The position numbers and the translations under genes were made by a program. A stretch of DNA of 63,668 nt, filler included, from Chrysochromulina tobinii (Eukaryota): assembly GCA_001275005.1 (NCBI GenBank). It is 8 parts of 8 records of this genome, joined end to end, with 100 filler letters (N's around TTAATTAATTAA, not from the genome) between each part and the next. Parts side by side here need not be neighbours in the genome. Positions count along the whole stretch, not along the records: positions 15,790 to 21,999 come from JWZX01000370.1; 7 more parts are not named here. One strand, given 5' to 3'. Below, in pieces: positions 3,752 through 29,002 of this stretch. Below the pieces are notes generated by a model that made no database searches, was not told the DNA's origin, and saw only the letters and a program-made list of their open reading frames with translations. Numbering within the stretch: the first letter of the stretch is position 1; the number at the start of each line of letters is the position of its first letter.

Positions 3752-5336
3752 ATGGCGTCGTCTTTTCGGCGGCGCGAGCGCTTCTCGCTGCTGCCGCTCC
3801 GACCGATAGACGAGACGCGCGCCGAGTTTTCGACGGCGCTCTCGCTCCGTAACGCGTGCGTCGCCTTCCACGACGACAAGTACTCGTACCACCGCGCTCA
3901 CTTTGTCGTCGATGGCCCTCTCGAGAGCCCGATCGTCATGCACGGCTTCGACGAGCGCGCGAGCGGCTACCAGCGGCTGACGGTGGTGCGCCGTGCGGAG
4001 GAGTACGACCGCCTTTCGATCGGCATGTGTCGGCGCGAGGCCCTCGGCCTCGGCGTGCCCGTCTCGCACGCCTCCTCCATCTACCATCAGCAGTTCCACG
4101 CAGTGCCTTCGTGGCTTGCGCTGCGGAAGCTCGTTGCGGACGCCGGGCTGGGCGAGAATGCGCCCGCGGCAGCGTTCGTACCGCTCGCCTTTGCCAGCGC
4201 CGCGCTCGGGCACGGCAAACCCGCCCAGCCACGCCGCTGGTACGCGTGGGAGTTCTCCATCCGCCCGCTCACCACAGCGAGTGCAGACGACATCGCTGCC
4301 GCGGCCAGCCGGTTGCTACGCGCGCCATGCACGTGCTTCGAACGCTTCGAGGCGGACGGGCGCGCGTTCAATCCGGGCGCGCGCTCCTCCGCGCCGGCCA
4401 TCCGTTGGTTTCGGGACGCGGCGCTACGGCACGCGCCGCTGGCCTTGGATGCCGCCGCCGCCGCATCAGCAGCAGCAGCAGCAGCAGCATCAGTAGCAGC
4501 AGCCGGGATGGCACCAGGCGGCGGCGGCAGCGGCGGCGGCAGCAACGGCGGCGGCGCGCTCTTACTCTTTGTGAGTCGGCAGGGCGTGCGGAGAGCCCTT
4601 TCGAACGAAGCCGACGTCCTCACCCTCATCGCACGCTCGCAAGCTTTGCGTGTCGAGTCGGCTCTGGGGGGCTCCTATGCGTCCTCCTCCTCCTATGCGT
4701 CCTCCTCCTCCTCCCTAGCGCTGTCTCGAGCGCCTCGACTGATGAGAGTTGTGCTCGAGCAGCTACCCATGGTCGAGCAGATGCAACTCGTCGCGTCCGC
4801 CACGGCGCTCATTGCAGTGCATGGTCAGGTCTGTTTGGGCCTCTGATCGCCTCTGATGGCCACTGATGGCCACTGATGGCCACTGATTGCAGTACATGCA
4901 CAGGCGCTCGCCTGGGTGCATGCCTTCGGAGCCTTCCTGCATGCAAGTGCTCACTACGGCGCCCTGCCGCAGGCGCTCGCCTGGGTCGCCTTCCTGCCTC
5001 CTGCATGCAAGTGCTCACTACGGCGCCCTGCCGCAGGCGCTCGCCTGGGTCGCCTTCCTGCCTTCGGAGCGACGCGTCACCAGCGTGGTCGAGGTGTCGA
5101 TCCAAACTCGAGCCGGCCAGCCCACCTTGAATGCATGCTACGAGGGCTGGAGCGCCGCGTTGGGCGTGCGTTACTTTCGTGTCGCCGGGCGGCTCACGGG
5201 CGGTTGCACGGGCGGCGCGACGAGCCGCGACGACGAGGCGCAGCGTTCGCACAAGCTGCTCGCATGCAACGTGACGTGCAACCCTGCACAGCTCGTCGGG
5301 ACCATCCTTTCCGTCGCGCAGCTGGTGGGCGGATAA
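3752..5336 (+). CDS. Glycosyltransferase family 61 (DUF563)-like protein (intron 4829-5036)
   Basis: The spliced product reads LLFVSRQGVRRALSNEADVL...LEQLPMVEQMQLVASATALIAVHGQ|ALAWVAFLP...VVEV, matching the GT61 R-x-R-x-x-N...EQ...HG signature. Confidence 0.75.
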
Positions 5337-5695: not shown

Positions 5696-8600
5696 ATGAT
5701 GGTGGCGCGACCGCCGCGCACCATGGCAACAGCGCCGGCACAGCCAAACACGTCTTTCTCGGCTGCAGCGTCCGCGCCCGAAGACGCCCCCATGCGCTCT
5801 CGCAGGCATAGCAGCCATAGCAGGGAAAGAGTCGCCACAAGAAACAAGCCGAGGGAGTTCCGAGCTGTGCCCGTCTTGCACTACCCGCTCAAGGAGCAGC
5901 GCTCGATACATGTGCTGCCTCATCAGGAGGAGCTCAACCCATTCCAGGACTATCTTCCACTTTCGACGCACGTGGTGCAGCCGGCGACATCGACAGGCGA
6001 AGACAGTCCGCGCACAGTTCACATTGGCGCAAGCCCCCTCCGTGCAACGCTGAGGCCGGCGCCCGTGCCGCGCGAGCGTCCTCGCACAGCCCTCACCCCG
6101 TCCGAGCTCGACGCGCTGATGACGGAAATCATCCATCGGCCACCGCCTCGGCTGGAGGTCGCGCAGTCGGCTCCTCTGCCGCCGTCGGCCAACGAGTTCT
6201 ACGGCCCGGATATCGACGGCCGCGAGTTGAAGCCCTCTTGGCGGCGCATACACTCCACCCAGTGGCGAGCACGTGTCGACAAGAACTGGCAGCGCGCCGT
6301 CTCGGCCGCGGGCGCGCGAGCTGCACGGCCGTCGACCGCACCTTCTCGAGCGCGAGCGTCCACGCGCTCGTCCAGATTAGGCATGTCCGACTGGACGAAC
6401 GGCTTCGTGGACGACGAGGACGAGGACGAGTACTACGAGGACAACGAAGAGGAGGAGGACGATGGTGTGGAGTCTGCGTCGGATATGGCGAGTGGCGTCG
6501 CCTCGGCACCGGCACCGGCGACTCCGATGGCGTCGGCAAGTCCTATCCGGCAGTCCGCGCCGGTCCTATCCCTCACAACTGCCGAGGGGCAACCATATGG
6601 CAGCACGAAGAGCGCTGGGGCCCTTTCAAAGCTCCTCAGCCGCAGCGCCAGCTCCGGTGCCGGCGGCGGCGGCGGCTGCGGCGGCGGCAACGCGGCTGCC
6701 GGCGGTGCGGCCGGCGTTGCGGCCGGCTCGTGCGGCGGCAGCGTTGCGGGCGGCGTTGCGGGCGGCAGCGGCGGCGGCGGCGGTCCGTTTCGTCTGAAAG
6801 ACATGGCCAAGCTGACCGTTTTGGGGAACGGCAAGGCCAGCAAACTCGCCCGTGAACGCACTGCGAGGGCAGAGGCGTACGCCCAGAAAGCCTTGACGAA
6901 GGCGGAGATGGCTGCCACGGCGGCAGAGGCCTTTGACTCGCGCCACGTGGTGAAGCTGGCTCATACGGTGAAGCTGGAGCGAATGGCGAGCGCGAAGGCG
7001 ACTGAAGATCGCAACTTGTCGTTCAACCAAGCGTTGAAGCGGATCCGATCCAACCGGCTTGTGATCCCCGACGCTCCCCCGGAGATGGTGATTGCATCTG
7101 ATGGCCCCTGATGGCTCTTCATCGCCTGGGGAAGCCTCTGAAGGCCTCTGATGGCCTCTGATGGACTCCGATTGCCTCCCTCATCAGATCCGGCCGATGG
7201 CGGGGATCCCAATCAGGCGGCCGCCTCCCAAGCCCAGATGGAGTTTGGACCGGAGCATTTGGAAGCCACGTGCTGCGTGGTGCGACTCGCAAGAGTTCTG
7301 GGATACCGATACGGCGCGCGTCAAGCGCTTCCATCTCGACTGGGCGAGATTGCTCGCGCTCGGCGTGCCCAAAATGACGCTTCGGCTCGCCGCGCAGGCT
7401 CTCAAAGGGAGCTCCGCTACGCCCCACCCGCAGGCTGCCGATGCGGACGTCTTAGACGACGCGCCCGATGGCAAGGGAAAGCCCAGCGATGCGAAAGGGA
7501 AGGAGGCGGCGGCGGAGGCGGTGGTGGAGGCTGCTTCACAGGCGGAACTGCAGAAGATGAAGGACGTGCTGTGGACCTTTTCGAGCCTACTGCACAACGT
7601 CTTCTCGTTCTACGCGGCCACGGGCGGCGACCCTCTTTACATCCAGCTCAACGAGTGGACGCAATTCCTCATGGACTACAATCTGGTGCAGCTGATGGCC
7701 TCTGATGGCCTCTGATGGCCTCTGATGGCCTCTGATGGCCCCGCTACCAGGTGCAACGCGCCTCGAAGCATTGCAAGAAGGCGGATTGCGATCGCATCTT
7801 TATCGCCGTCGATGCGGCAGCCACACGATTCGCCGAAGCGCTCGAAAAGGATCCAAGCGCCGTCGCGAGCGCTGCGGCCGAGAACCCCATCATGACTGTG
7901 TCGCCCAAACGCGCCGGGTCGCCTTCTGGCGCGCGACCAGGATCGCCTTTCAAGAAGGAGGGGCCGTCACATGTTCACAAGAAGAAGTCGCTAGGACGGG
8001 TGGACTTCCTGGTGAGGGCGTCTGATTGCGCTCTAATTGCGTCTCTGATTGGGCCTCTGATTGTAAATCATTGCCACTGAGCTTGCGCCCTGCCTCTTCC
8101 ACAGACTGCTCTCATCCACTTGTCGCTTCATCGGTTCGTTCTCTCGAACGAGGAGGTGACCCTTTCGGGGGCGCTGTATCGGTTGGTGAGTCTGATTGGG
8201 TCTGATTACACCTCATTGCTCTCGAACGAGGAGACAACCCTCTCGGGCGCGCTGTATCGGTTGGCGACCGCCTCGGATGGTCCTGAGGCTGGCCCCGAGA
8301 TCGTCCCCGAGTTTGTACCCCGAGCGTCCCTACTTGGCAAGTATGGCCTCTGAGCGCGCCCTCCCCCCCCCTCCAATTCGGTAGGTGCATCAACTGATCT
8401 ACAAGCAGGCCGACCCCAGGCAGCTCTCCGACCCAAACTCCTTTCGGCGGCGTCACTGCTACGGCGGTGCCGCCGCGCTCGAGTACAGCCGCACCGGCGA
8501 GGACGTCGATCTCGTGCTGCGAGGTTACGAGGCCCCGTTGCGGTTGGTCTTCAACGCGCTCAACCAGGCCGACTTGGGCGTCGCCGCCACGCTACTCTCG

Positions 8601-11115: not shown

Positions 11116-14100
11116 TCAGTTGCTCGCCTCTTGTGTGAAGCGCGAGCGGATGTCGCGCAACAATGCCTTCGCCTCCTCCTTCTCCTGACCCCCGAAGTCG
11201 AGGAGCCGTGAGGCGTACCTGAGGCAATTAGAGGCAATTAGAGGCAATTAGAGGCAATTAGAGGCAATTAGAGGAGCCGTGAGGCGTACCTGAGGAGGCA
11301 ATCAGGAGGCAATCAGCGCTCATCAGTACCCATCACAAGGCTCGTCGCGGCGACACGTACTATTGGGCCTCTTGGAGTTCATACTGAGGTCATCAGAGGT
11401 CATCAGAGTTCATCAGAGTTCATCAGAGTTCATCAGAGGTCATCAGAGGTCATCAGAGGTCATCAGAGGTCATCAGACGTACTGTTGGGCCTCTTGGAGG
11501 TCGCCTGTGTCTTTGCAGTGGTTGGCGAGGAAGAGGAGGGCCTCCTGCGAGCGGTCATCAGTGGTCATCAGTGGTCATCAGAGGTCATCAGTGGTCATCA
11601 GTACCTGTGTGTCGGGGCCCGAGAGCTCCTTAGAGGCAATTAGCGGAAATTAGAGGCAATCAGAGGCAATCAGAGGCAATTAGAGGCAATCAGAGGCAAT
11701 TAGAGGCAGTACCTGTGTGTCGGGGCCCGAGAGCTCCTGCAGCTCGCGCAGCCGGAGCATCGTGCGGTAGTAGTGCGCGGCCTCGCCGCGCGCCTGTGGA
11801 GTACCTGTGGGGAGAGGGACCGGAGCGCCGTGATGAGCACTTGCATAAGGGGCGCCGTGGTGAGCACTTGCATGCAGGCGTGGTCGGTTAAGGTTCGGGA
11901 TCGGGTGAGTGCCTTGGTCTTTGAAGAGTCGTGCGAGCTCCGCGAAGGCGATGCCTTCGCGATCGCCGCTGGTCTCTGCGCGTTGATAGCACTTGATGGC
12001 CTCCGTAGTGCGCCCGAGGTGCTTGTAGCAGCCAGCCATCGCACACCACATGCGCGCGTCGTACGGCCGCAGCGCGGTCGCCTTGCGGTAATAGTAGAGG
12101 GCATAGTAGTACATGGTGAGGATCTCGTAGGTCTGGCCTAGGCCGTACCTGCCATGAGTGAGGGTAATGAGGATCATTAGGGTAATGAGCTGCATTAGGA
12201 TGGCCATCGGAAACAAGCTCGAGGGTAATGAGGATCATTAGGGTAATGGGGATCATTTGGGTAATGAGCCGCCGTAGAATGGAATCGGAGCATGTAATGA
12301 GCCGCCGTAGAATGGAATCGGAGCATAAGGTAATGAGGATCATTAGGGTAATGAGCTGCATTAGGATGGCCATCGGAAACAAGCTCGAGGGCGCTCTTCG
12401 AGGCGCCGTACCAAGCGCGGTAGTCCTTCGGGTTGATGTCGACTGCATGCCGGTACGCGTCCACGGCCGCCGCCGTATTCTTAAGCTCCACGAACTCGTG
12501 ACCCATCAGCGTCCACGCGGAGAGGAAATGGCGATTGAGTTTGAGCGCGCGCCGGAAGTACGTGACCGCCTTCTCGTGCTCCGCCTTGAGCGAGTAGTAG
12601 TTGCCGATCACGCAGCAGGTCTCGGGCCGGTACCTGCAAGGAGGGCCATTATTGCAAGGAGGGCCATCAGGGCGATAGAAGAGGGCATAGGATTCATCAC
12701 GGTATTTCGGGCGATGCGTGCAATGCTGGCGATGCGCGCAATGAGTGCGATTAGGGCCATAGAGCAGGGCTCTTAGGGCAATGAGGGCCATGAGGGCCAT
12801 GAGGGCCATACAAGAGGGCTCAGTAGTCATCGCGCAGCAGGTCTCGGGTGGCGTACTTGTCAATGGAGACGCAGGCTTGGGCGAGGGCCGACAGCGATCG
12901 TTTCGACTCCTTCACGTAAAGGATGTTCGAGTAGGTGTCGACCTGGTCGAGCCGGTAGGGGTCGCGGCGGTAAGGGTACTCATAGTTAATCATAGGTACT
13001 CATAGGTACTCAAAGGTACTCATAGGTACTCATAGTTAATCATAGGTAATCATCGACCTGGTCGAGCCGGTAGGGGTCGCGCTTCAGGAGCGCCTCAAAC
13101 CCGATCTGTGCGTCGTCGAACTCGCGCAGATTGTATTTCGCGTGCGCGAGCTGGCACTGCACGTAAGGCGAGTTTGGGAAGAGAGGCAGCAGCTGCTCGT
13201 ACCTGTGCAATCAGGCGCAGTCATGTGTAATTAGGTGCAATCAGGCGCAGTCATGTGTAATTAGGTGTAATCAGGCGCAATCAGTGTAATTTGGCGCAAT
13301 CAGGCGCAATCAGGCGCAACCATCCGTGCAATCAGGCGCAGACAGGCGCAATCAGGTGCAGACAGGCGCAACCAGGCGCAATCGTCCGTACCGATGCGTG
13401 CTCAGCATGAGGGAGGCAGGGAGCGAGGCAGGGAGCGAGGCAGGGAGCTAGACGCACTGCTGGATCGCGAGCAGATTCTGCTGAGCCTCGAGCGAGGTGT
13501 GCGCACGGAAGAAGGCAACCATCCAGTGCTGGGCGACGTGCTCCGGCAGCTCGAGCGTCGAGATCGCCTCCGGCCCGCTCAGGCACGATGCGAGTTCCGT
13601 CCAGGCCGACCAGAAGCAGGGGCACCTTGCCGCCGAAAGCTTGAACTGCTCAAGGGCCTGGGGAGGCCGCTGAAGGTCGCGCATGCAGAGGCCGTAGACG
13701 TAGTGGCCGAAGCCATCGAGGCGGCCGGCCTGCGCCTCGACCCCCAGCTCGTTGCTCAGCAGCGTGAGCTGCTCGTTCACCGCACGCGGCTTGCCGGTTG
13801 GCACCACCGACGTGCCGCCTCCGCTCTCCTCGAGGACACGTTCATCCTTGCGCTTCTCTCCAGCGAGGAAGAGCGAGTACCAGCGGAGGAAGCGGCCGCG
13901 TGGCGCGCGTGCGCCTCGAAGCGTGTGCGCCGCGCGCAGGAACTCGTTCGAGTCAAAGTACGCCTTGGCGAGCAGCACGACGTCCGCCTCCTCCTCAGTC
14001 TCCTCGTCGGCCTCCTCGTCGGCCGCGGCGGACGCCGTCGCGGCTGCAGGCATCTCCTGGTCGTCGGCCGGCAGTTGCGACGCCGGGCGCAGCCCAACCA

Positions 14101-15789: not shown

Positions 15790-18700
15790 CGTTTGGACAG
15801 GGCGCCTATGTCAGGTGCATGAGCGCCGCGTGCACCGCGGCCGTCTCGTCGTCGGCCTCGTCCGCGGGCTCGTCAGGCTCGTCAGGTTCGTCAGGTTCGT
15901 CAGCGGACGCTCGCCTTGTGGCCGTGTACACGCACGCTTCCTCGGCGGGCGCTCTCGACCAGCGCTCCATCTTCGCCATCCTGCGCAACGGGACGCGCCT
16001 CACCTACCTCGCAAACAAAGTGTCGACGGTTCGTGTCGGGAGGCCGATGAACGCCGAGACCGGAGCCGGTGGCGGCTACTCGTTCCGCAACCCGCCCAAG
16101 TTCCACTCATTTCTCCGTCCGTCGATCCGAGACGCGGCGTACGAAACTGAGGCGCTGCTTGAGCACCTCTTCTACCACAAGAACGTGGCGCCCTTTATGG
16201 CGCGCCGACTGATCCAGCGCATGGTAATGGCCTCGGATGGCCTCGGATGGCCTCGGATGGCCTCGGATGGCCTCGGATGGCCACTGATGGCCTCGGATGG
16301 CCTCGGATGGCCTCGGATGGCCTCGGATGGCCTCGGATGGCCTCGGATGGCCTCGGATGGCCTCGGATTGTCTCTGATTGCCAATGGCCTCTGATCCAGC
16401 GCATGGACCTAGCGCCGTGGTGAGCACATGGACCCAGCTCCAACCCGTCGCCCGCATTGAAGAAATCACCCCGGAGCCACCCCCCCCCTCCCCCAACAGG
16501 TCTCCTCCAACCCGTCGCCGCGCTACGTGGGCGTCGTCGCGCGCGCGTTTAAGCAAGGTGCGTACGGCGGCACGATCTACAGACATGCAAGTGCTCACCA
16601 CGGCGCCCGCCCTCTTCACAGGTGCATACGGTGGCACGACCTACGGCGCTCACTACGGCGACCTCGGCGCGACGTTCGCAGCAATCCTTCTCGATCGCGA
16701 GGCGCGCTCACTCACGCTCGACATGGATCCCATCCACGGACAGCTGCGCGAGCCCTTGCTCAAGGTCTGATGAGATCTGATGAGATCTGATGAGATCTGA
16801 TGAGATCTGATGAGATCTGATGAGATCGCGAGCCCTTGCTCAAGGTCTGATGAGATCTGATGAGATCTGATGAGATCTGATGAGATCTGATGAGATCTGA
16901 TGAGATCTGATGAGATCGCGAGCCCTTGCTCAAGGTCTGATGAGCTCTGATGGCCTCTGATGTTGACTGAGTGCGACTGAGTGCGACTGAGTGCGACTGA
17001 GTGCGACTGAGTGCGGCTGATTGCCCTTGCTCAAGGTCAGCCGCATCCCTATCCCGAACCCTACCCTGAGCCCTTGCCACAGGTGTACCACATCCTGCGC
17101 ACGCTCGGCTTCGGGAGCAACGGCAAGGGCTACCTGCATGACATCGTAACTGCCGGCTCGATAGGCCAGCAGCACATGAAGGCGCCCACGGTCTTCAACT
17201 TTTACGATCCGCTCTACCAGCCGCCTGGTGCCGTGGCCGAGGTACAGCTCTCGCGGCCTTGATTACCTTGATTACCTTCATCAGAGGCCGAGGTACAGCT
17301 CTCGCGGCCTTGATTACCTTGATTACCTTGATTACCTCGATTAGAGGCCGAGGTACAGCTCGTCTCGCCCGAGCTGCCGCCCGCACTCGCATGCAAGTGC
17401 CCACTACGGCGCCTCGTGCTCGCCCCTCTCCGCCCAGGCACAGCTCGTCTCGCCCGAGGCGCAGCTCGGTACGGGGCCAAACATGGTCGGCTTCCTCAAC
17501 GTGATGACGGGCGTCATCAGGGCTGGCTCGAGCGGCCAGGCCTGGGTGTGGAATGGAATGACGTCCTACCTGCCCATCCACCCAGCCAACAGCTCGGCCA
17601 CGATCGACGAGCTCGAGCTTCTTCTCACTGGCGGCCGGTTGGCCGCGCCCGCCCGCGCCCTCATCAAGGCGCGCTACGAGCAAAAGCTCGCGAGCACCGG
17701 CGGCAACGCTGCAGAAGCGGTGCGAGTCGCGCCTTGATTGCATCTGATACGCCGTTGATTGAGCCTCCCTAATTAGATGCGAGAGTCGCCTAAGAGCTGA
17801 TGACACTTGATTGCATCTGATGCGCCGTTGATTGAGCCTCCCTAATCAGGTGCGAGTCGCCCAAGAGCTCTTCCTCTTTGCGTCCGAGTTCCACGCGAGC
17901 AATTACGTTCAGGAGCGCGCCGTGCCACGCACCGCGCTGCCCGAGATCCCTTCGCAGAACCGGCCGTACAAGGCCATCGTGTACCTGTGGCTTGATGGCG
18001 GCGCCGATACGTGGAACCTGCTCGTGCCGCATAGCCAGTGCACCGGCGGCGTCGATCTGTACAACGAGTACGCGCACCTTGATGACTCCTGATTGCCTCC
18101 CTGATAACGTCGATGACCGCCGAGGGCGTGAGCGCCTCGGATCATGACGATGGCCTGATTGCCTCCCTAATTTGGCATCGATCTCGAGCATGCGACGACG
18201 TTGCACTTTGGCCACTTGAGGGCATTTGAGTGGCCTCTGATGAGCGATGACGACCTCGTCCCTAATTAGGTACGCGGCCGTGCGCGGCGCGAACGCGCTG
18301 CCAAAGTCGACCCAATTGCCCATCGATGTGCCCGCGACCGACGACCAGCCGTGCACCAAGTTTGCGATCCATCACAAGATGACCGCTCTCAAGGCGGCGT
18401 ACGACGCCGCCGACGCAGTCCTGCTTGCCAACATTGGACCCCTCATCCAGCCGTTGGACCTCCAGAGCTATAACAACGGCGCGCCACGCCCGCCGTCGCT
18501 CTTCGCTCACAATCTGCAGACGACCGTCTCGCAGAATGTGCATGCGCAAAACTCCGCCTCCGCGCGGGGTGTGCTCGGGCGCATCCAGCGCGTGCTCGAG
18601 GGCGACCAACCGTCCGGCGAGTTGCCCCACCGCGTGCGCTCGTACTCGATCGCGGGCAACGCCAAGGTGCTCGAAGGCTCGATCTCGGCGCCCGAGATCC

Positions 18701-20519
18701 TCTCATTGCTTGATGGCCTCTGATGGCCTCTGATGGTCTCCCTCATCAGGTGCTCGAAGGCTCGATCTCGGCGCCCGAGATCCTCTCCGCCGATGGACCG
18801 GTCCGTTTGAGCCGTTACGCGGCCTTACAGTCGGACGTGTCCGAGCTGGCCGGTTCGGAGGCGGCGTCCATCTACGCGGAGACTTACGGCGGCGTCCTTG
18901 AACGCTCGATCGAGTCGGCAGAGGACCTGAAGCGCGCGCTCGACAACCCGATCGCGGCGCTCTCGACGACCTTTGGATCCGATGTGGTCTCGAGGCAGCT
19001 CCAGCAGGTGGCTATGACCTCTGATGACCTCTGAGGACCTCTGAGGACCTCTGAGGACCTCTGAGGACCTCTGAGGACCTCTGAGGACCTTGCATGACCT
19101 TGCATGACCTTGCATGCAGCGCGATCTGATCGGTTACCTTGCATGCAGCGCGATCTGAGCGGTTCCGTCCCCCTCGCCTCCGCTCAGGTCGCCAAGATTA
19201 TCGGGGCGCGTTCCATATTAGGTAACGAGCGCGAGATCTTCTTCATCTCATACGGAGGGTGGGACTCGCACTTCGCGGGCGACTACGACGTCGCCAAAAA
19301 GTGGCAGGACGTGAACGCGGGCCTCACGAGCTTCGTCACCGAGATGAAGGCTCAGGGCATCTGGGACAACGTCACGTTCACGATGGCGTCCGAATTCGGT
19401 CGCACGATCGACTCCAACGGCGGAGGTACAGACCACGGCTGGGGCGGCCACTCGTTTGTGATGGGCGGCTCAATCAAGGGCGGCCACATCCTCGGCAAGT
19501 ATCCGAGCACCTACAGCCAGAGCAGCCCGATCCGTCTCCATCGCACCTTCATCCCGACCCTCAGCCACGAGGCGCTATGGCACGGCCTGGCCCAGTGGAT
19601 GGGTGTCGAGGACGCCGTGATGACCAATGTGCTCCCAAACCTCCGCAAGTTCACCAGCGAATGTTCGCCCGGCTTCCCCGGCTGCATCATCCTCACACAG
19701 GTACGTTGATTGCCCCTGATGACCTGCCTTGCATGCAAGTGCTCACCACAGCGCTTCCCCGGCTGCATCATCCTCTCACAGAACATGCTCTTCGACGGAG
19801 CTGCCGGCCCAAGCCCGCCGCCCCAACCACCGCCGTCGCCACCGCCGTCGCCTCCAAAGTCGCCGCCCCCGCCACCCGCGCCGCCCAAGCTTCCCCCCTC
19901 CCCCAGCCTGCCTGTCAGCCGGATCTACTGCCCCGCACCCGGCTTCAACCTCACCACCGACTCGGCAGGCGGCGACAGGTGCGTCGGCTGCTGCTCCTCT
20001 CTGAGGGCCTCTGAGGGCCTCTGATGACCTCTGATTGCGCCACTCATCAGGTGCGTCGGCTGCTGCTCCTCTTCGAATTGGACGTTTCCGATCGGCTGCG
20101 CCGACTCACTGTACATCATCCCTGACCTCAACGGTCTCTACAACGGCGTCAACGTGCGGATGCCGCGCGTGATCAAGTCGCCGTGCTACCACGACGTTGG
20201 CTCGTCGGTCGCCTGGGGCGCCTACGTCGAACGATGCGACATCAACTGGGTCGAGGGCAGCCCCGCACGCCACGCGACGACGGTGCTGTACAAGAGCACG
20301 GGCGAGGAGGTGACCGTGCTGCGCGTCATCAATTTCGGCACGACATACGTGCGTTTCCTCTGCAACGCCGCATCGAGCTGCGCCTCGGCGCTCTACACGA
20401 CGGGCGACACGATCAAGGTCAGGTACCCGAGTCCGATTCAGCCGCGGTCGGTCTTCCCCAACACGAACACGCCATGCGCCATCGGCCTCGGAGTACCGCC
20501 GTCAATGCCGCCCGTTTGA
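15790..20519 (+). CDS. DUF1800-DUF1501 fusion protein with Pro linker and Cys-rich C-terminal domain, 5'-partial, 10 introns
   Basis: Introns 16224-16499, 16558-16621, 16765-17082, 17242-17437, 17720-17849, 18068-18269, 18667-18749, 19008-19187, 19701-19781, 19979-20050. DUF1800-type motifs: LFYHKNVAPF.ARRLIQRMVSSNPSPRYV, GDLGATFAAILLDREAR, GQLREPLLK, APTVFNFY. DUF1501-type motifs: KAIVYLWLDGGADTWNLLVP, LFAHNLQ, GGWDSH, SEFGRTIDSNGGGTDHGWGGHSFVMGG. Confidence 0.88.
16226..16390 (+). repeat. Intronic decamer array (CCTCGGATGG)n
   Basis: About 14 tandem units directly after the GTAATG donor. Confidence 0.95.
16765..17040 (+). repeat. Intronic arrays (CTGATGAGAT)n and (CTGAGTGCGA)n with repeated copies of the exon end and donor
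   Basis: CGCGAGCCCTTGCTCAAGGTC recurs at 16747, 16827 and 16917, and partially at ~17023. Confidence 0.95.
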
Positions 20520-26136: not shown

Positions 26137-29002
26137 TCACTTTGCACCCTTGCGCGAGGAGCGTGCGCGGCCAAGTCGCTCCTCGACGAGTCTCTGCACG
26201 CGATCTTCGCTAGCGGCTGCGCTGCGGATCGCGGCTTGGGCGCGCGCAGACGTCTGGCGCGCCAAGTTCTGAGGCGGGCCGGGGATGCGCGACTGCCGCG
26301 AGCCGGTCGCGTCCGACGTGGCCGAGTCGCTCGTGCCCGCCTGGCCGCAGTAGAGGCTCGTGCTGTGAGGCGACTCGATAGGCATGCGCACGTACGGCCG
26401 ATCGCTCGCGCTGCGCCACTCGTGCGCCGCGGCTGCGGTGCTAGCATCCTCAACAAAGAGTGGCGCGATGTCCACAACGCTCCACGCGCTGGGCCGCGGC
26501 TCCTCGAGCTCATCGCCGGCTCCGCCAGCGTAGCCGCCGCCGCCATGGGCGGTGCGGGCGCCGATGGCCTCATACTCTTGTAGCAGCGTCGGGTATCGTG
26601 GGCTCTGCTGCGGCGGCATCGGCGCGGGTGGCACGGCGTAGCCGAAGCTGTTGGTTTGCGACAGCTCACGCGGGGCACTGCGAGCGCACTGCGAGTCGCT
26701 CGGCACGACGCTGTCCAGGCGTGCGCGCTGCGGCGGCGGCTCATGCATCGAGCCTACGCGCATCTTACCAGCGGCAGCACCGCCGTACTCGGTGGTGTCT
26801 TTGAGGGCGGCATCGCGCAGGATGTGATGGCTCTCGCGTGCCAAGCCACATGAGGCACATGAGGGCGTGCGCGGCGGCGGCGGCGCCGAAGGCCAAGGCG
26901 GGAAGGGCGCCCGAGGAGGCGAGGGCGCGCGCGGAGCTGAGCGCGGACCCCGCAGCGGCGAGGCGCGCGGCGGCAGGGCGGTGGGCCACTTGGAATCTGT
27001 CAGCTCGGCATCGAGGGAGCGCTCGGGAGAGGGCTCGGGAGAGGGCTCGGGCGAGGGCAGAGGCATCCATTCGCCGTCGGCCTCGGCGGGCGCCGCGGCT
27101 GTGCTTCCGTCGTCCGTTTCAGGGTCGTCGAAGCGCCCAGACGAGGGCGACGCGCCACTCCTCGGCGGCATCCGAGGCGTGCCGAGGAATAGTGGAGGCT
27201 CGCGCGGCGGCCCGGCCTCTTCATATCCTCCGCCATGTGGCGCCGGGTAGTAATAGTCCTCCTCGTGCGGGTGGTCCTCGTGTGGGTGGTCTTTGCCGCC
27301 CTTGGGCATGGCCTTGCCATGGGGCGTGTCCGCGCGCCTCTTGCCCGAGCTGCGCAGAGCCATGGCTGCCTGGCGCTGCGCCTCGAGTACGCGCTCTCGC
27401 TCAAGTCGCTGCGCGGCCTCGTGGCGTGCCAACTCCATGCGCTCCTCCACCACACGCCGGGGCAACAAGTGCAGCTCGATGCGCCGCGCCTCGGCTGCTT
27501 GCTTCTCGGCCTCGACGCGTGCAGACTCTTCCCGTCCTGCCTTGAGGCGCTGCGCGTGCGCCTGAGCCGCGGCCGCCATGCGCGTGATGCGCGCATCACG
27601 CTCCTCCCTCGTCTCCCTTTTCGCGGCCGTCGGCGGCCCATCCAGCAGGTCGATAGCCTTGGGCCGTTCTTTTCGTGGGCTCGACGCCTTCGCAGGCTCG
27701 AGGTACTTGGAGGTGACGTGGGCCAACTTCGGGTTCCGGCCGGGGCTCGGGCTTCGGCTGCGGTCCGGGCTCGAGCTGCGACCCGGGCTCGACGGGCGTC
27801 CCGGGCTTGACGGGCGTCCCGGGCTCGATGGTTTGCGTGCCGCCTCCATGCGCGCGACGTGCTGTTGCAGTGGGTCGCGGATGGCATGCCACAGCTCATT
27901 GATCTGGACAAAACCATCGCCGTCCTCGTCGAACGATTCGAAGAGCCTATCGACCTCGTGCAAGGGGACATCAACGATCCCGAGCATGGCGACCGCCCTG
28001 CGGAACTCCTCCTTTCCCCCTTTTCCGTCACCATTCAAGTCCCACTGACGGAAGAGGTCGAGCACCTTGCTGTGGCTGGCAGACAGAGCGCTCTTGACCT
28101 TTTGCTGGAGAGCAACCTGCTTCATGCGCTCGATTTTCTCGGCGTCTGACTCTCGAATGCGTGGCGTGCCCACGTCCACCGGACCGGGCTTCCGCCAGAC
28201 GGCCCGCTGGATCTCACTGGCGATCCGCGCCTCGGGCTTCCGCCAGATCATCTTCTGGAGCTCATCGATCTGAAGATGGCCATCGCCGCTCTTGTCGAAC
28301 ACGTCGAAGAGTAGGTCGATCTCGTGCGCGGGAACCTCGATCCCGAGCGCGGCGATCACCCTGCGAAACTCCTCCTTTCCCACAGTGCCGTCAGCCTTCA
28401 CGTCCCCGTGACGGAAGAGCTTGTTCGCGCTCCCCCGTTGACGGAAGAGGTCAAGCACCTTCGCGTGATTGGCCTGCAGTGCGCTCTTCATCTGCTGCTG
28501 GATGTGGTTGACAGCGGTGCGAGCAGAGGTACCGGTGGCAGCAATGCCACGGAAAGCAGATGCGCGGGCGCCCGCGATCGACGCGTCGCCGGCGGGCGCA
28601 CCATCGGTGTTGAGGGCACGCTGCTCACCACGGCGCTCATCGGTGTTGAGGACACGCTGCTCAGCACGGCGCTCAGCAGGCGACACGAGCGCCGCCTCGA
28701 GCGCCGCCTCGGCACGCAGCTTGTCGCGCAGCCGCGCGCGCTCATCCTCGCTGGTGACGCCGTCGCTCAACCCTCTGGCAGCCGAAAACCTCTGGCTGTC
28801 CTCAAATGCCGCCTGGCTGTCTTCAAAGTCCGCCTGGCTCGTCGCATCGCCACTAGGGCTCGGGGCCCAAGCGCCTGGGCTTGCGCGGGGACTGGGACTG
28901 ACCGCCGGCCTTCGAGATGAAGACTCCCATCGAGTTTCGTCAGCCCTCGAGCCTCGAGTTTCGTCAGCCCTCGAGCCTCGAGTTTCGTCAGCCCGAGCAC
29001 TT
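26137..29002 (-). CDS. EF-hand calcium-binding protein with long low-complexity C-terminus, 5'-partial
   Basis: Two duplicated EF-hand pairs (DLFRQ..DVKADGTVGKEEF / FDKSGDGHLQIDEL; WDLNGDGKGGKEEF / FDEDGDGFVQINEL). Frame stays open to the spacer. Confidence 0.78.

Follow-up and report, generated by a model that had tools for sequence, protein, structure and literature searches.

Introners that carry one splice site and co-opt the other have been described in Symbiodinium, in classes 4-10 of Polarella, in Aureococcus and in a marine Chrysochromulina MAG family (PMC9860276, bioRxiv 10.1101/2020.10.14.339549, PMC11282704). As far as the accessible text of these sources goes, published introner duplications have a fixed length of 3-9 bp within each family, and the families are similar from end to end. 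The screen of PMC9860276, in its available portion, requires similarity up to both intron ends. Other described routes are the tandem genomic duplication of AGGT (PMC3443670, PMC3265369, PMC4974935) and reverse splicing, which has been proposed for fungal ILEs and for the non-TSD introners of Micromonas (PMC11146597, PMC9860276). In mammalian cells opposite-strand nicks with 3' overhangs give rise to small tandem duplications (PMC8355091). C. tobinii and C. parva appear in the retrievable supplement text of PMC9860276 just as screened genomes, and the words of the motif described below are absent from that text. In the literature consulted, haptophyte introners with this motif or with long duplications are undescribed; the SI of PMC9860276 and the supplements of PMC12130899 and of the bioRxiv Polarella paper may bear on this novelty.

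The window, a stretch of 63,668 nt of Chrysochromulina tobinii made of eight joined contigs, holds eight copies of a 25-nt core. Six match with at most 3 mismatches (4938-4962+, 5002-5026+, 11852-11876-, 16582-16606+, 17388-17412+, 19730-19754+) and two with 4 (11825-11849- and an antisense partial copy, 16412-16429). By shuffling 0.00 matches are expected, and 0 of 100 shuffles gave six or more. A sequence-only reading of the window had reported a recurring ~25-nt cassette in three unrelated genes on two contigs. This is confirmed; the coordinates were right to within 1-2 nt, and the antisense partial copy placed near 16411-16430 is the one listed above. All eight copies are confined to the first two contigs. 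Their three unrelated host genes are one with a weak glycosyltransferase-61 match (E 0.002, which misses the Pfam cut-off), a minus-strand Cdc23/ANAPC8 (E 5e-46) and one carrying DUF1800 and DUF1501. The acceptor lies 19, 19, 24, 34, 36 and 29 nt from the A of TGCTCAC, and 56 nt from it in a distal tandem copy; the claimed range of 19-36 nt for acceptor-proximal copies was thus reproduced. The branch point is predicted to lie in the CTCAC of the core. An Rfam scan of the window gave 0 matches at the gathering score. Emiliania and Chrysotila were the closest named genera in protein searches (48%). The Emiliania genome paper is said to report 10-11-bp repeats in introns.

All three RNA runs contain one contig that skips the focal intron, 16558-16621, with GT..AG ends, and the spliced junction of this intron aligns gap-free to three homologues. 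The same RNA contigs also skip 16224-16499. The RNA comparison covered 15790-16755; the other introns of the window are predictions based on a stop-free spliced frame and a gap-free junction alignment with three homologues. Neither skip joint is present in the DNA run, where no contig spans either place, and the focal intron is present in a separate DNA assembly (L038). It had been portrayed as exon copy, cassette, pyrimidines and CAG with almost nothing else, and exactly one spare base was found besides the 23-nt copy, the core and the 15-nt tail. The branch A assigned to 16597 is a prediction from position and the CTCAC motif.

Beyond the window, the core family is dispersed in a haptophyte, in at least 141 metagenome stretches, and 224 distinct copies were analysed. 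Copies were collected by an exact 17-mer, which inflates the conservation of positions 4-20 within the 24 core positions conserved at 78-100%. Depth in the DNA run is ~8,400 at the core versus 54-61 on unique flanks, which is not a copy number but hints at many loci. Two stretches matched viral contigs, one by a chance 17-mer (L001), the other (L002) through a copy right at the terminus of a 4.5-kb record.

The copies occur in three builds. A type A copy provides the acceptor side (predicted branch point, pyrimidine stretch and CAG) and relies for its donor on a duplicate, ~25 nt long, of the exon that follows, whose first 12 nt are repeated upstream at GT/GC in 98 of 135 copies versus 22 of 2000 permutations. 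In type B the donor is part of the copy, on a 29-nt 5' arm, and the acceptor lies in duplicated sequence of the preceding exon. Type C is the core alone between direct repeats, unspliced, in either orientation and often in frame. The sequence-only view of an acceptor-side cassette is correct for type A and reversed for type B; the longer form of the element, for which it had suggested a search, exists in the copies with the 5' arm. An acceptor lies within 40 nt of the core in 144 of 224 copies (antisense control 50), at an A-to-AG spacing of 19-36 nt in 138 of these 144, and the family tail C[CA]CACAG is found in 101 of 224 copies versus 0 antisense. Past the core, type B and C copies continue for just 0-14 nt. 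An A occupies core position 21 in 18 of 22 5'-arm copies versus 10 of 98 of type A (p 6e-11). Type A intron lengths are even across the frame classes (32/38/28). The 14-nt 3' half alone is ~20-fold enriched (112 vs ~5.5); such half-cores are not flanked by repeats above background (17/76 vs 45/250 controls). A second acceptor module shows a like exon duplication at 38 of 72 sites (control 32/1500). No coding master was found among the collected loci. The features of the window are collected in Table 1; the Cdc23 intron is without a long exon copy.

Table 1. Core-bearing and related features of the window
Position	Strand	Feature	Basis
4829..5036	+	Predicted 208-nt intron: 10-mer repeats and older acceptor, then two exon copy/core/CAG units (cores 4938-4962, 5002-5026)	
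11805..11912	-	Predicted 108-nt GC-AG intron of Cdc23: two tandem cores (11852-11876, 11825-11849), CCCCACAG tail	
16224..16499	+	276-nt intron of 10-mer repeats, with copies of both exon edges and antisense partial core	RNA skip
16412..16429	-	Antisense core, 5'-truncated, between 8-nt repeat copies 16402-16409 and 16427-16434	
16558..16621	+	GT-AG intron, 64 nt, type A (exon duplicate, cassette, acceptor tail)	RNA contigs, homologues
16558..16580	+	23-nt copy (3 mismatches) of next exon's start; source of GT donor	Sequence comparison
16582..16606	+	25-nt core, match from 16584; predicted branch A 16597, 24 nt before acceptor	
16607..16621	+	Pyrimidine tail and CAG acceptor, arriving with core	Sequence; family tail
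16622..16644	+	Exonic original of duplicated 23 nt	RNA contigs, sequence comparison
17242..17437	+	Predicted 196-nt intron with layered copies of exon edges, followed by 21-nt exon copy (17353-17373), core (17388-17412) and acceptor tail	
18667..18749	+	Predicted core-less intron: perfect 38-nt exon copy and second acceptor module (10-mer repeats, CCCTCATCAG)	
19701..19781	+	Predicted 81-nt intron, type B: core 19730-19754 with position 21 = A, then 27-nt copy of previous exon end supplying AG	Stop-free frame, homologues, sequence
19701-19729	+	29-nt 5' arm with GT donor of intron 19701..19781	
19979..20050	+	Predicted core-less intron: perfect 22-nt exon copy and second module	
28623..28672	+	Two 14-nt 3' halves of core, 36 nt apart, within local duplication	

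Like the introners with one co-opted splice site, the core family consists of many short related introns in unrelated genes, with one splice site on the element and the other from a target duplication, and haptophytes are known hosts. Similar introns stand in non-paralogous genes (three window genes, 224 copies), and splicing is precise, by RNA for 16558-16621 and by frame and homologues for the other window copies. Unlike published introners, the core acts as 3'-carrier, 5'-carrier or unspliced insert; its duplications vary between 8 and 74 nt (median 25 in type A) with no fixed length, and its members share only a piece of 25-55 nt. Similarity does not reach both intron ends: the 5' ends of type A and the 3' ends of type B are locus-specific exon copies. 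AGGT duplication and the core family have in common that a splice site comes from a duplicated stretch of exon, which is then spliced out exactly. In 52 of 98 type A targets, however, no AG precedes the co-opted donor (46 of 98 have one) and the acceptor side is imported, hence this is not plain AGGT duplication. The proposal that a mobile or templated cassette makes a duplication spliceable is supported by these 52 targets.

A direct repeat, with a median length of 26.5 nt, spans the core in 166 of 229 copies versus 46 of 400 control sites, some of the counted repeats being tandem arrays that include the core. Usually the flanking repeats are 15-45 nt of the gene's own sequence. In this the family resembles intron gain by break repair, in which an insert between direct repeats is read as the repair of a staggered break. 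It differs in that the repeats are long, and in that described break-repair inserts are unrelated one-offs, whereas the core is a recurring, evolving insert with a predicted branch point and a splice site. The duplicates are identical in 20 of 60 cases. At one site, 1 of 13 aligned proteins has a 10-residue peptide and a 12-residue duplicate where 12 of 13 have a single copy; this empty/filled pair is at protein level and concerns an unspliced copy, and a deletion between repeats could also produce it. Among 143 loci, no spliced intron was seen to have an empty allele. An introner-like remnant or an RNA-templated insert had been suggested for the family; introner-like is apt, but identical duplications and the empty/filled site give it the look of a live family. 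Unit number differs in L073 and L092, with assembly collapse possible; the L073 allele of intron 4829..5036 has one unit versus two in the window.

Private tails are common to unrelated genes with look-alike targets (L059/L095/L142; L012/L130), and a variant 5' arm is common to L020/L070/L079/L138. Such sub-lineages at look-alike 8-14-nt sites indicate that copies are made from other copies, so that the mobility claimed for the cassette stands. Tail similarity and exon-start similarity are weakly correlated (Mantel r 0.14, p 0.018, 73 loci). Among 64 repeats examined, 55 begin at or just before AG, the remaining 9 resemble indels on visual inspection, and no copy carries donor exon beyond the CAG. 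Mismatches between repeat copies are commoner at CpG (33/400 vs 46/1107); since exon and intron copies have lost CpG about equally often (11 and 8), this gives no direction.

Spliced copies are strongly sense-biased (94/98). Antisense copies do exist: 16412-16429 lies inside an RNA-confirmed intron, L023 has one within an 802-codon frame of the other strand, and L123 has both orientations 120 nt apart. A strand classifier scored 29 of 67 acceptor-less copies as antisense, at least one wrongly (L009, where the long frame is sense); a marker method called 4 antisense, 23 sense and 40 unclear. Equal frequency in intergenic DNA and in both orientations had been held to speak against a mobile cassette. 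Acceptor-less copies do occur in both orientations, which partly bears out this objection for that subclass; it argues for splice-blind insertion followed by selection, not against mobility. In a strict class of acceptor-less copies the period is divisible by 3 in 13 of 16 (8 of 11 loci), a class defined only after a looser one had given a non-significant 14 of 29 (p 0.11); against random local repeats (22 of 45) the 8 of 11 is weak (p ~0.1, a hand estimate).

We marginally favour the view that the core spreads when staggered breaks are patched with sequence copied from a family member, and that selection keeps spliceable or in-frame inserts. From these patterns we infer the following steps. 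Two nicks 15-45 nt apart would leave overhangs whose fill-in duplicates the target. One of the ends would then pair with a donor copy where a handful of bases match at its exon junction (GTRCGY-like exon starts in type A, exon ends such as CATTCCACAG or GAGGAGCAG in type B), and 25-55 nt would be copied. The ends would be rejoined with 0-30 nt of filler. Exonic sense inserts would survive where the duplicate supplies the missing splice site, the remaining ones in frame or inside an intron. Unequal exchange between the direct repeats would expand or contract them into tandem units. Donor-like exon starts are, however, expected from selection alone too, and the sharp 5' edge of the core (GCATGC; in 95 of 111 the distance to the downstream CTCAC is 11-12 nt) weakens the model since random repair does not predict it. 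Because no donor exon extends past the CAG, a template of excised-intron RNA fits equally well.

This last point leads to the main rival, target-primed reverse transcription, in which an enzyme of non-LTR or Penelope type, supplied in trans, would nick the target and prime on excised (debranched) intron RNA or a SINE-like transcript. We regard it as unlikely, yet with a substantial residual chance. It leaves long variable duplications and has CAG and GT as natural RNA ends, so that the variable 15-45-nt duplications, the precise 3' end at the CAG without donor exon and the copies in both orientations are in its favour. Type A copies moreover retain graded remnants of the 5' arm (mean 1.7 nt vs 0.45 in the control, up to 12), which gives the variable target duplication with 5' truncation typical of SINE/non-LTR insertion, and introners derived from non-LTR elements make up 5% of the classified cases in the accessible text of PMC12130899. 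On the other hand, the position profile of the copies has no poly-A, A-rich or simple-repeat tail, the 3' end is as variable as the 5' end considering where types B and C stop, and no RT-coding partner was noticed in 254 kb of loci, inspected without a profile search.

One-sided reverse splicing, by which the post-splicing spliceosome would join one lariat end to a nicked R-loop strand and repair would duplicate the flank (3' end joined in type A, 5' end in type B), appears very unlikely. Lariat-spliceosome activity is shown and R-loop insertion proposed (PMC11146597, in its available part), and one precise splice-site end opposite a ragged, duplicated end is what it predicts. It also predicts re-insertion at existing junctions, and 18 of 98 type A copies do follow an older acceptor; most of these, however, are tandem copies of the same unit. 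Sense-only inserts with a splice site at one end are predicted as well, but antisense and core-only copies exist. The family shares with fungal ILEs and Micromonas introners that it is short, non-coding, without terminal inverted repeats, strongly genic and sense when spliced; those, in the accessible text, insert whole and without duplications, whereas the core family has long duplications and includes partial and antisense copies.

A decayed cut-and-paste, MITE-like introner, with the long repeats due to unrelated local duplications, is a shade less credible still and largely refuted. Published haptophyte introners include a Chrysochromulina family with 4-bp duplications, no terminal inverted repeats and a carried 5' splice site (PMC9860276, available part), and local tandem duplication is common at our loci. 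Yet neither terminal inverted repeats nor RNA structure were found (five folded stretches, z -0.2 to 0.74), the duplications are not of fixed length, and young copies with perfect repeats are already locus-specific at their ends.

That the core is a host splicing signal, an extended branch site or a protein site such as UGCAUG, arisen repeatedly in tandem-duplication introns, is highly improbable and mostly refuted. The UGCAUG word is linked to RBFOX-type proteins, and the sharp 5' edge, the strict spacing to the acceptor and the sense bias of spliced copies agree with a signal. The conservation of 24 positions, the sub-lineages with linked SNPs, the antisense and in-frame exonic copies, the empty/filled pair and the lack of the core in most introns of the same window genes do not. 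A function of the core could account for its retention, not for its spread. Telomerase-templated insertion of telomerase-RNA fragments at breaks, or a library or assembly artefact, has next to no chance: mammalian inserts of this kind are likewise recurring, templated and flanked by direct target duplications at staggered breaks (PMC7215372, accessible part), but the core copies lack telomeric repeats and no telomere-like arrays were found beside them, while RNA contigs skip the focal intron, independent assemblies agree on copy placement and 185,579 prokaryote genomes give 0 matches.

Break repair with copied intron pieces may reach beyond this one family. Tentatively, and with less confidence than we place in break repair itself, one may envisage a transposase-free, self-feeding intron factory: common intron pieces would serve as patches for staggered breaks, selected where a few bases match at the junction, from a stock of the core, the 10-mer module and others. 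Each patch that splices would be a new donor, so that most introns of this alga would combine a duplicated exon edge with a splice module from this stock. For haptophyte gene models a caution follows. MQVLTTA-type peptides had been dismissed as spurious, and usually they are intron read-through; some copies, however, are part of long open frames, predicted proteins differ in the presence of one copy, and some such peptides are probably real insertions.

The source of most new introns is not known. In this one family it can be seen where the introns come from, which splice site is co-opted and which outcomes fail (antisense, in-frame and unspliced). Since all of this is visible in an alga that can be cultured and for which DNA and RNA data exist, models of break repair, retrotranscription and reverse splicing differ in countable predictions. 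Published intron-transposon screens likely miss such a route of gain, because similarity must reach both intron ends in a screen such as that of PMC9860276, as its accessible text describes it. If the intron factory is real, its families would be invisible to end-to-end introner screens and may explain much of the so far unexplained intron gain in haptophytes.

The 25-nt core carrying TGCTCAC defines a real and functional family. Within the window it has six matches with at most three mismatches, where 100 shuffles predict none, and two more at four mismatches; all eight are confined to the first two of the eight contigs. The sequence-only reading had placed copies in unrelated genes, with the A of TGCTCAC about 19-36 nt ahead of the acceptor and one copy in a 64-nt intron. 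Its copy coordinates agree with the motif scan to 1-2 nt, the hosts are indeed unrelated (see table), and the measured distances are 19, 19, 24, 34, 36 and 29 nt. RNA contigs of three runs (region compared, 15790-16755) skip exactly the span of this focal intron, and likewise 16224-16499, both with GT..AG ends. With ten predicted introns removed, 15792-20420 reads through about 1000 codons without a stop, and its spliced junctions align without gaps to three homologues. The nearest named relatives of the window's Cdc23 are haptophytes (48%). Core copies are strongly clustered by gene, with up to eight in metagenome locus L009; contigs 3-6 (22100-44600) hold mostly intron-poor genes, and the full core is absent there. 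TGCATGC occurs 25 times per strand across the window, several-fold above a rough base-composition expectation.

Scanning metagenome contigs with an exact 17-mer yielded at least 141 stretches with the motif; among prokaryote genomes the full motif has no match. The listed stretches gave 284 raw matches (at most four mismatches), reduced to 229 by removal of 55 with short flanks or duplicates and to 224 by a second de-duplication. Core positions 2-25 are 78-100% conserved among the listed copies, positions 4-20 having been preselected by the 17-mer, and the flanks are not conserved apart from a downstream pyrimidine run. A direct repeat spans the core in 166 of 229 listed copies versus 46 of 400 control sites.

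The core is used in three builds. In type A, to which the focal intron belongs, the intron opens with a duplicate of the beginning of the next exon, donor included; 0-30 nt of filler separate this duplicate from the core, which is followed by a pyrimidine tail and CAG. Among the acceptor-bearing listed copies without a 5' arm the next exon's first 12 nt are repeated upstream at GT/GC in 98 of 135, compared with 22 of 2000 permutations. These introns measure 53-134 nt (median 77.5) and represent the three frames evenly; the exon copies are 8-74 nt long (median 25), differ from their originals at 80 of 1713 positions and are perfect in 20 of 60. Because only 46 of 98 targets offer an AG ahead of the donor that is co-opted, the acceptor is imported and not duplicated. 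A 4.5-kb record filed as viral (L002/L144, G001) ends in about 150 nt of an algal type A copy adjoining a 500-codon phage-like frame; the record probably represents host DNA or a chimeric assembly. Type B (22 listed copies under a strict rule) begins with a common 29-nt arm, itself opening with the donor, continues with the core and takes its AG from a duplicate of the end of the previous exon. Most type B copies (18 of 22) have A at core position 21, versus 10 of 98 type A copies. Type C (21 listed copies) is the core alone between direct repeats, without splice signals; several copies lie inside predicted frames of at least 800 codons (L009 and L065 sense, L023 antisense). A clear repeat is present in 16 of 21, with a period divisible by 3 in 13 of 16 (8 of 11 loci). 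The evidence for this in-frame bias is only moderate, since a looser first definition of the acceptor-less class gave a non-significant 14 of 29, and control repeats 22 of 45.

Duplication is not restricted to the core. The downstream exon is likewise copied at 38 of the 72 sites of a second acceptor module, which is made of 10-mer CTGAT repeats and ends in CCCTCATCAG or CCCTAATCAG; the control gave 32 of 1500. An exon-edge copy scoring at least 11 occurs in 8 of 12 window introns examined and is absent in 4, and the type B arm, which opens with 10-mers of this kind, is also found without a core. Duplication is thus a feature of how introns arise in this genome, with the motif as one of its stock inserts. 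Introns rich in branch-like 10-nt repeats recur at many loci, their unit number varies among alleles, and period 10 accounts for 14 of the window's perfect tandem arrays. The 14-nt 3' half of the core alone is about 20 times more frequent than an order-4 Markov expectation, often in short tandem arrays.

Features of the core family and associated introns, the latter predicted outside 15790-16755
Feature	Position	Strand	Remark
Host gene, weak glycosyltransferase-61 match	first two contigs		weak domain match
Host gene Cdc23		-	protein similarity
Host gene DUF1800+DUF1501			domain matches
Focal intron	16558-16621	+	type A
Type B example	19701-19781
Antisense core	16412-16429	antisense	between 8-nt repeats, within RNA-confirmed intron
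Cdc23 intron	11805-11912	-	GC donor; spliced protein ~3 residues longer than homologues; AACCCT-like short words
AACCCT-like short words in intron	17050-17082
Core-less intron	18667-18749		perfect 38-nt next-exon copy, second acceptor module
Core-less intron	19979-20050		perfect 22-nt next-exon copy, second acceptor module
Core-less intron	17720-17849		perfect 11-nt next-exon copy, second acceptor module
Introns rich in 10-nt tandem repeats (CTGAT/CTAAT)	4829-5036, 7087-7187, 7690-7750, 11220-11470, 16224-16499, 19008-19187
TTGCATGC fused directly to AGCGC, twice	19086-19150		in intron 19008-19187; resembles type B core minus middle
Lone 14-nt 3' half-cores	28623-28672; L047, L075, L082, L043

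A classifier of strand, based on k-mers and trained on type A flanks, assigned the sense orientation to 94 of the 98 type A copies, 20 of the 22 type B copies and 35 of the 37 others that bear an acceptor. For the 67 acceptor-less copies it gave 38 sense and 29 antisense, an independent marker count 23 sense, 4 antisense and 40 undecided; the antisense share is uncertain because the classifier errs on intron-free frames (L009). Clear antisense cases are the window copy, L023, and L123 with both orientations close together. Two sense and one antisense core (L123:1-552) lie in a frame that by eye resembles cytosine-5 DNA methyltransferase.

Private variants argue that copies were made from other copies. 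Unrelated genes have in common a variant arm (L020, L070, L079, L138) or a 23-nt filler (L067, L110). L012 and L130 have a 21-nt tail in common, and both targets end in CATTCCACAG; L059, L095 and L142 have a common GC donor and 20-nt tail, at targets that in each case read GAG(G)AGCAG|GC. At 73 type A loci, the more alike the tails, the more alike the exon starts, but the correlation is weak (r 0.14, p 0.018). In one predicted protein a single version of 13 aligned has a 10-residue insert plus a 12-residue duplicate, 12 having a single copy, which points to an empty and a filled site at the protein level. None of the listed loci yielded an empty allele of a spliced intron. Unit number is two in the window versus one in L073 and also differs between L035 and L092, possibly through assembly collapse. 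A low-complexity predicted protein (L014:3-437, P0036-P0047) varies in how many 15-residue MQVLTTA units it has and contains one further insertion that is polymorphic.

We are highly confident that this is a copied, intron-making family; as for its spread, we lean slightly towards break repair. A staggered break would be repaired with a templated insert, and selection would act afterwards. Such a route fits duplications that are long and variable in length, ends that are ragged on both sides, the presence of filler, the occurrence of either orientation, and the resemblance between donors and targets. In mammalian cells, small tandem duplications arise from paired nicks that leave 3' overhangs (PMC8355091, in the text available), and break repair was proposed as the origin of repeat-flanked introns in Daphnia (PMC3443670, likewise). 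Against break repair, the core's 5' edge is sharp in 95 of 111, no copy examined carries donor exon beyond the CAG, and no repeat enrichment surrounds the abundant 3' half of the core. The main rival, a retroelement enzyme priming on excised intron RNA, accounts for precise ends too. One-sided reverse splicing, as outlined in the accessible part of PMC11146597, fails on the antisense and core-only copies. No RNA fold was found in the stretches folded, no Rfam match in the window, and no true telomeric arrays near core copies.

Like introners as described in the available portions of PMC9860276, bioRxiv 10.1101/2020.10.14.339549, PMC11282704 and PMC12130899, the family carries one splice site and co-opts the other from a target duplication; it differs from them in that its members are not alike from end to end and have neither TIRs nor duplications of a fixed 3-9 bp. 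The published screen, as far as its accessible text goes, demands similarity near both intron ends (PMC9860276) and so would drop the core family. The accessible supplement names C. tobinii and C. parva solely among the genomes screened, and the part examined contains none of the motif words. The portions available of the C. tobin and Phaeocystales genome papers (PMC4580454, PMC12480563) yielded nothing on intron repeats, and the literature covered, mostly outside subscription journals, no description of the motif. The initial proposal of a mobile or templated branch-point cassette which makes a duplication spliceable is supported, the branch point being a predicted one, and extended. What is novel is an introner-like intron gain with unusually long duplications, in which one core serves two builds that are spliced and one that is not.
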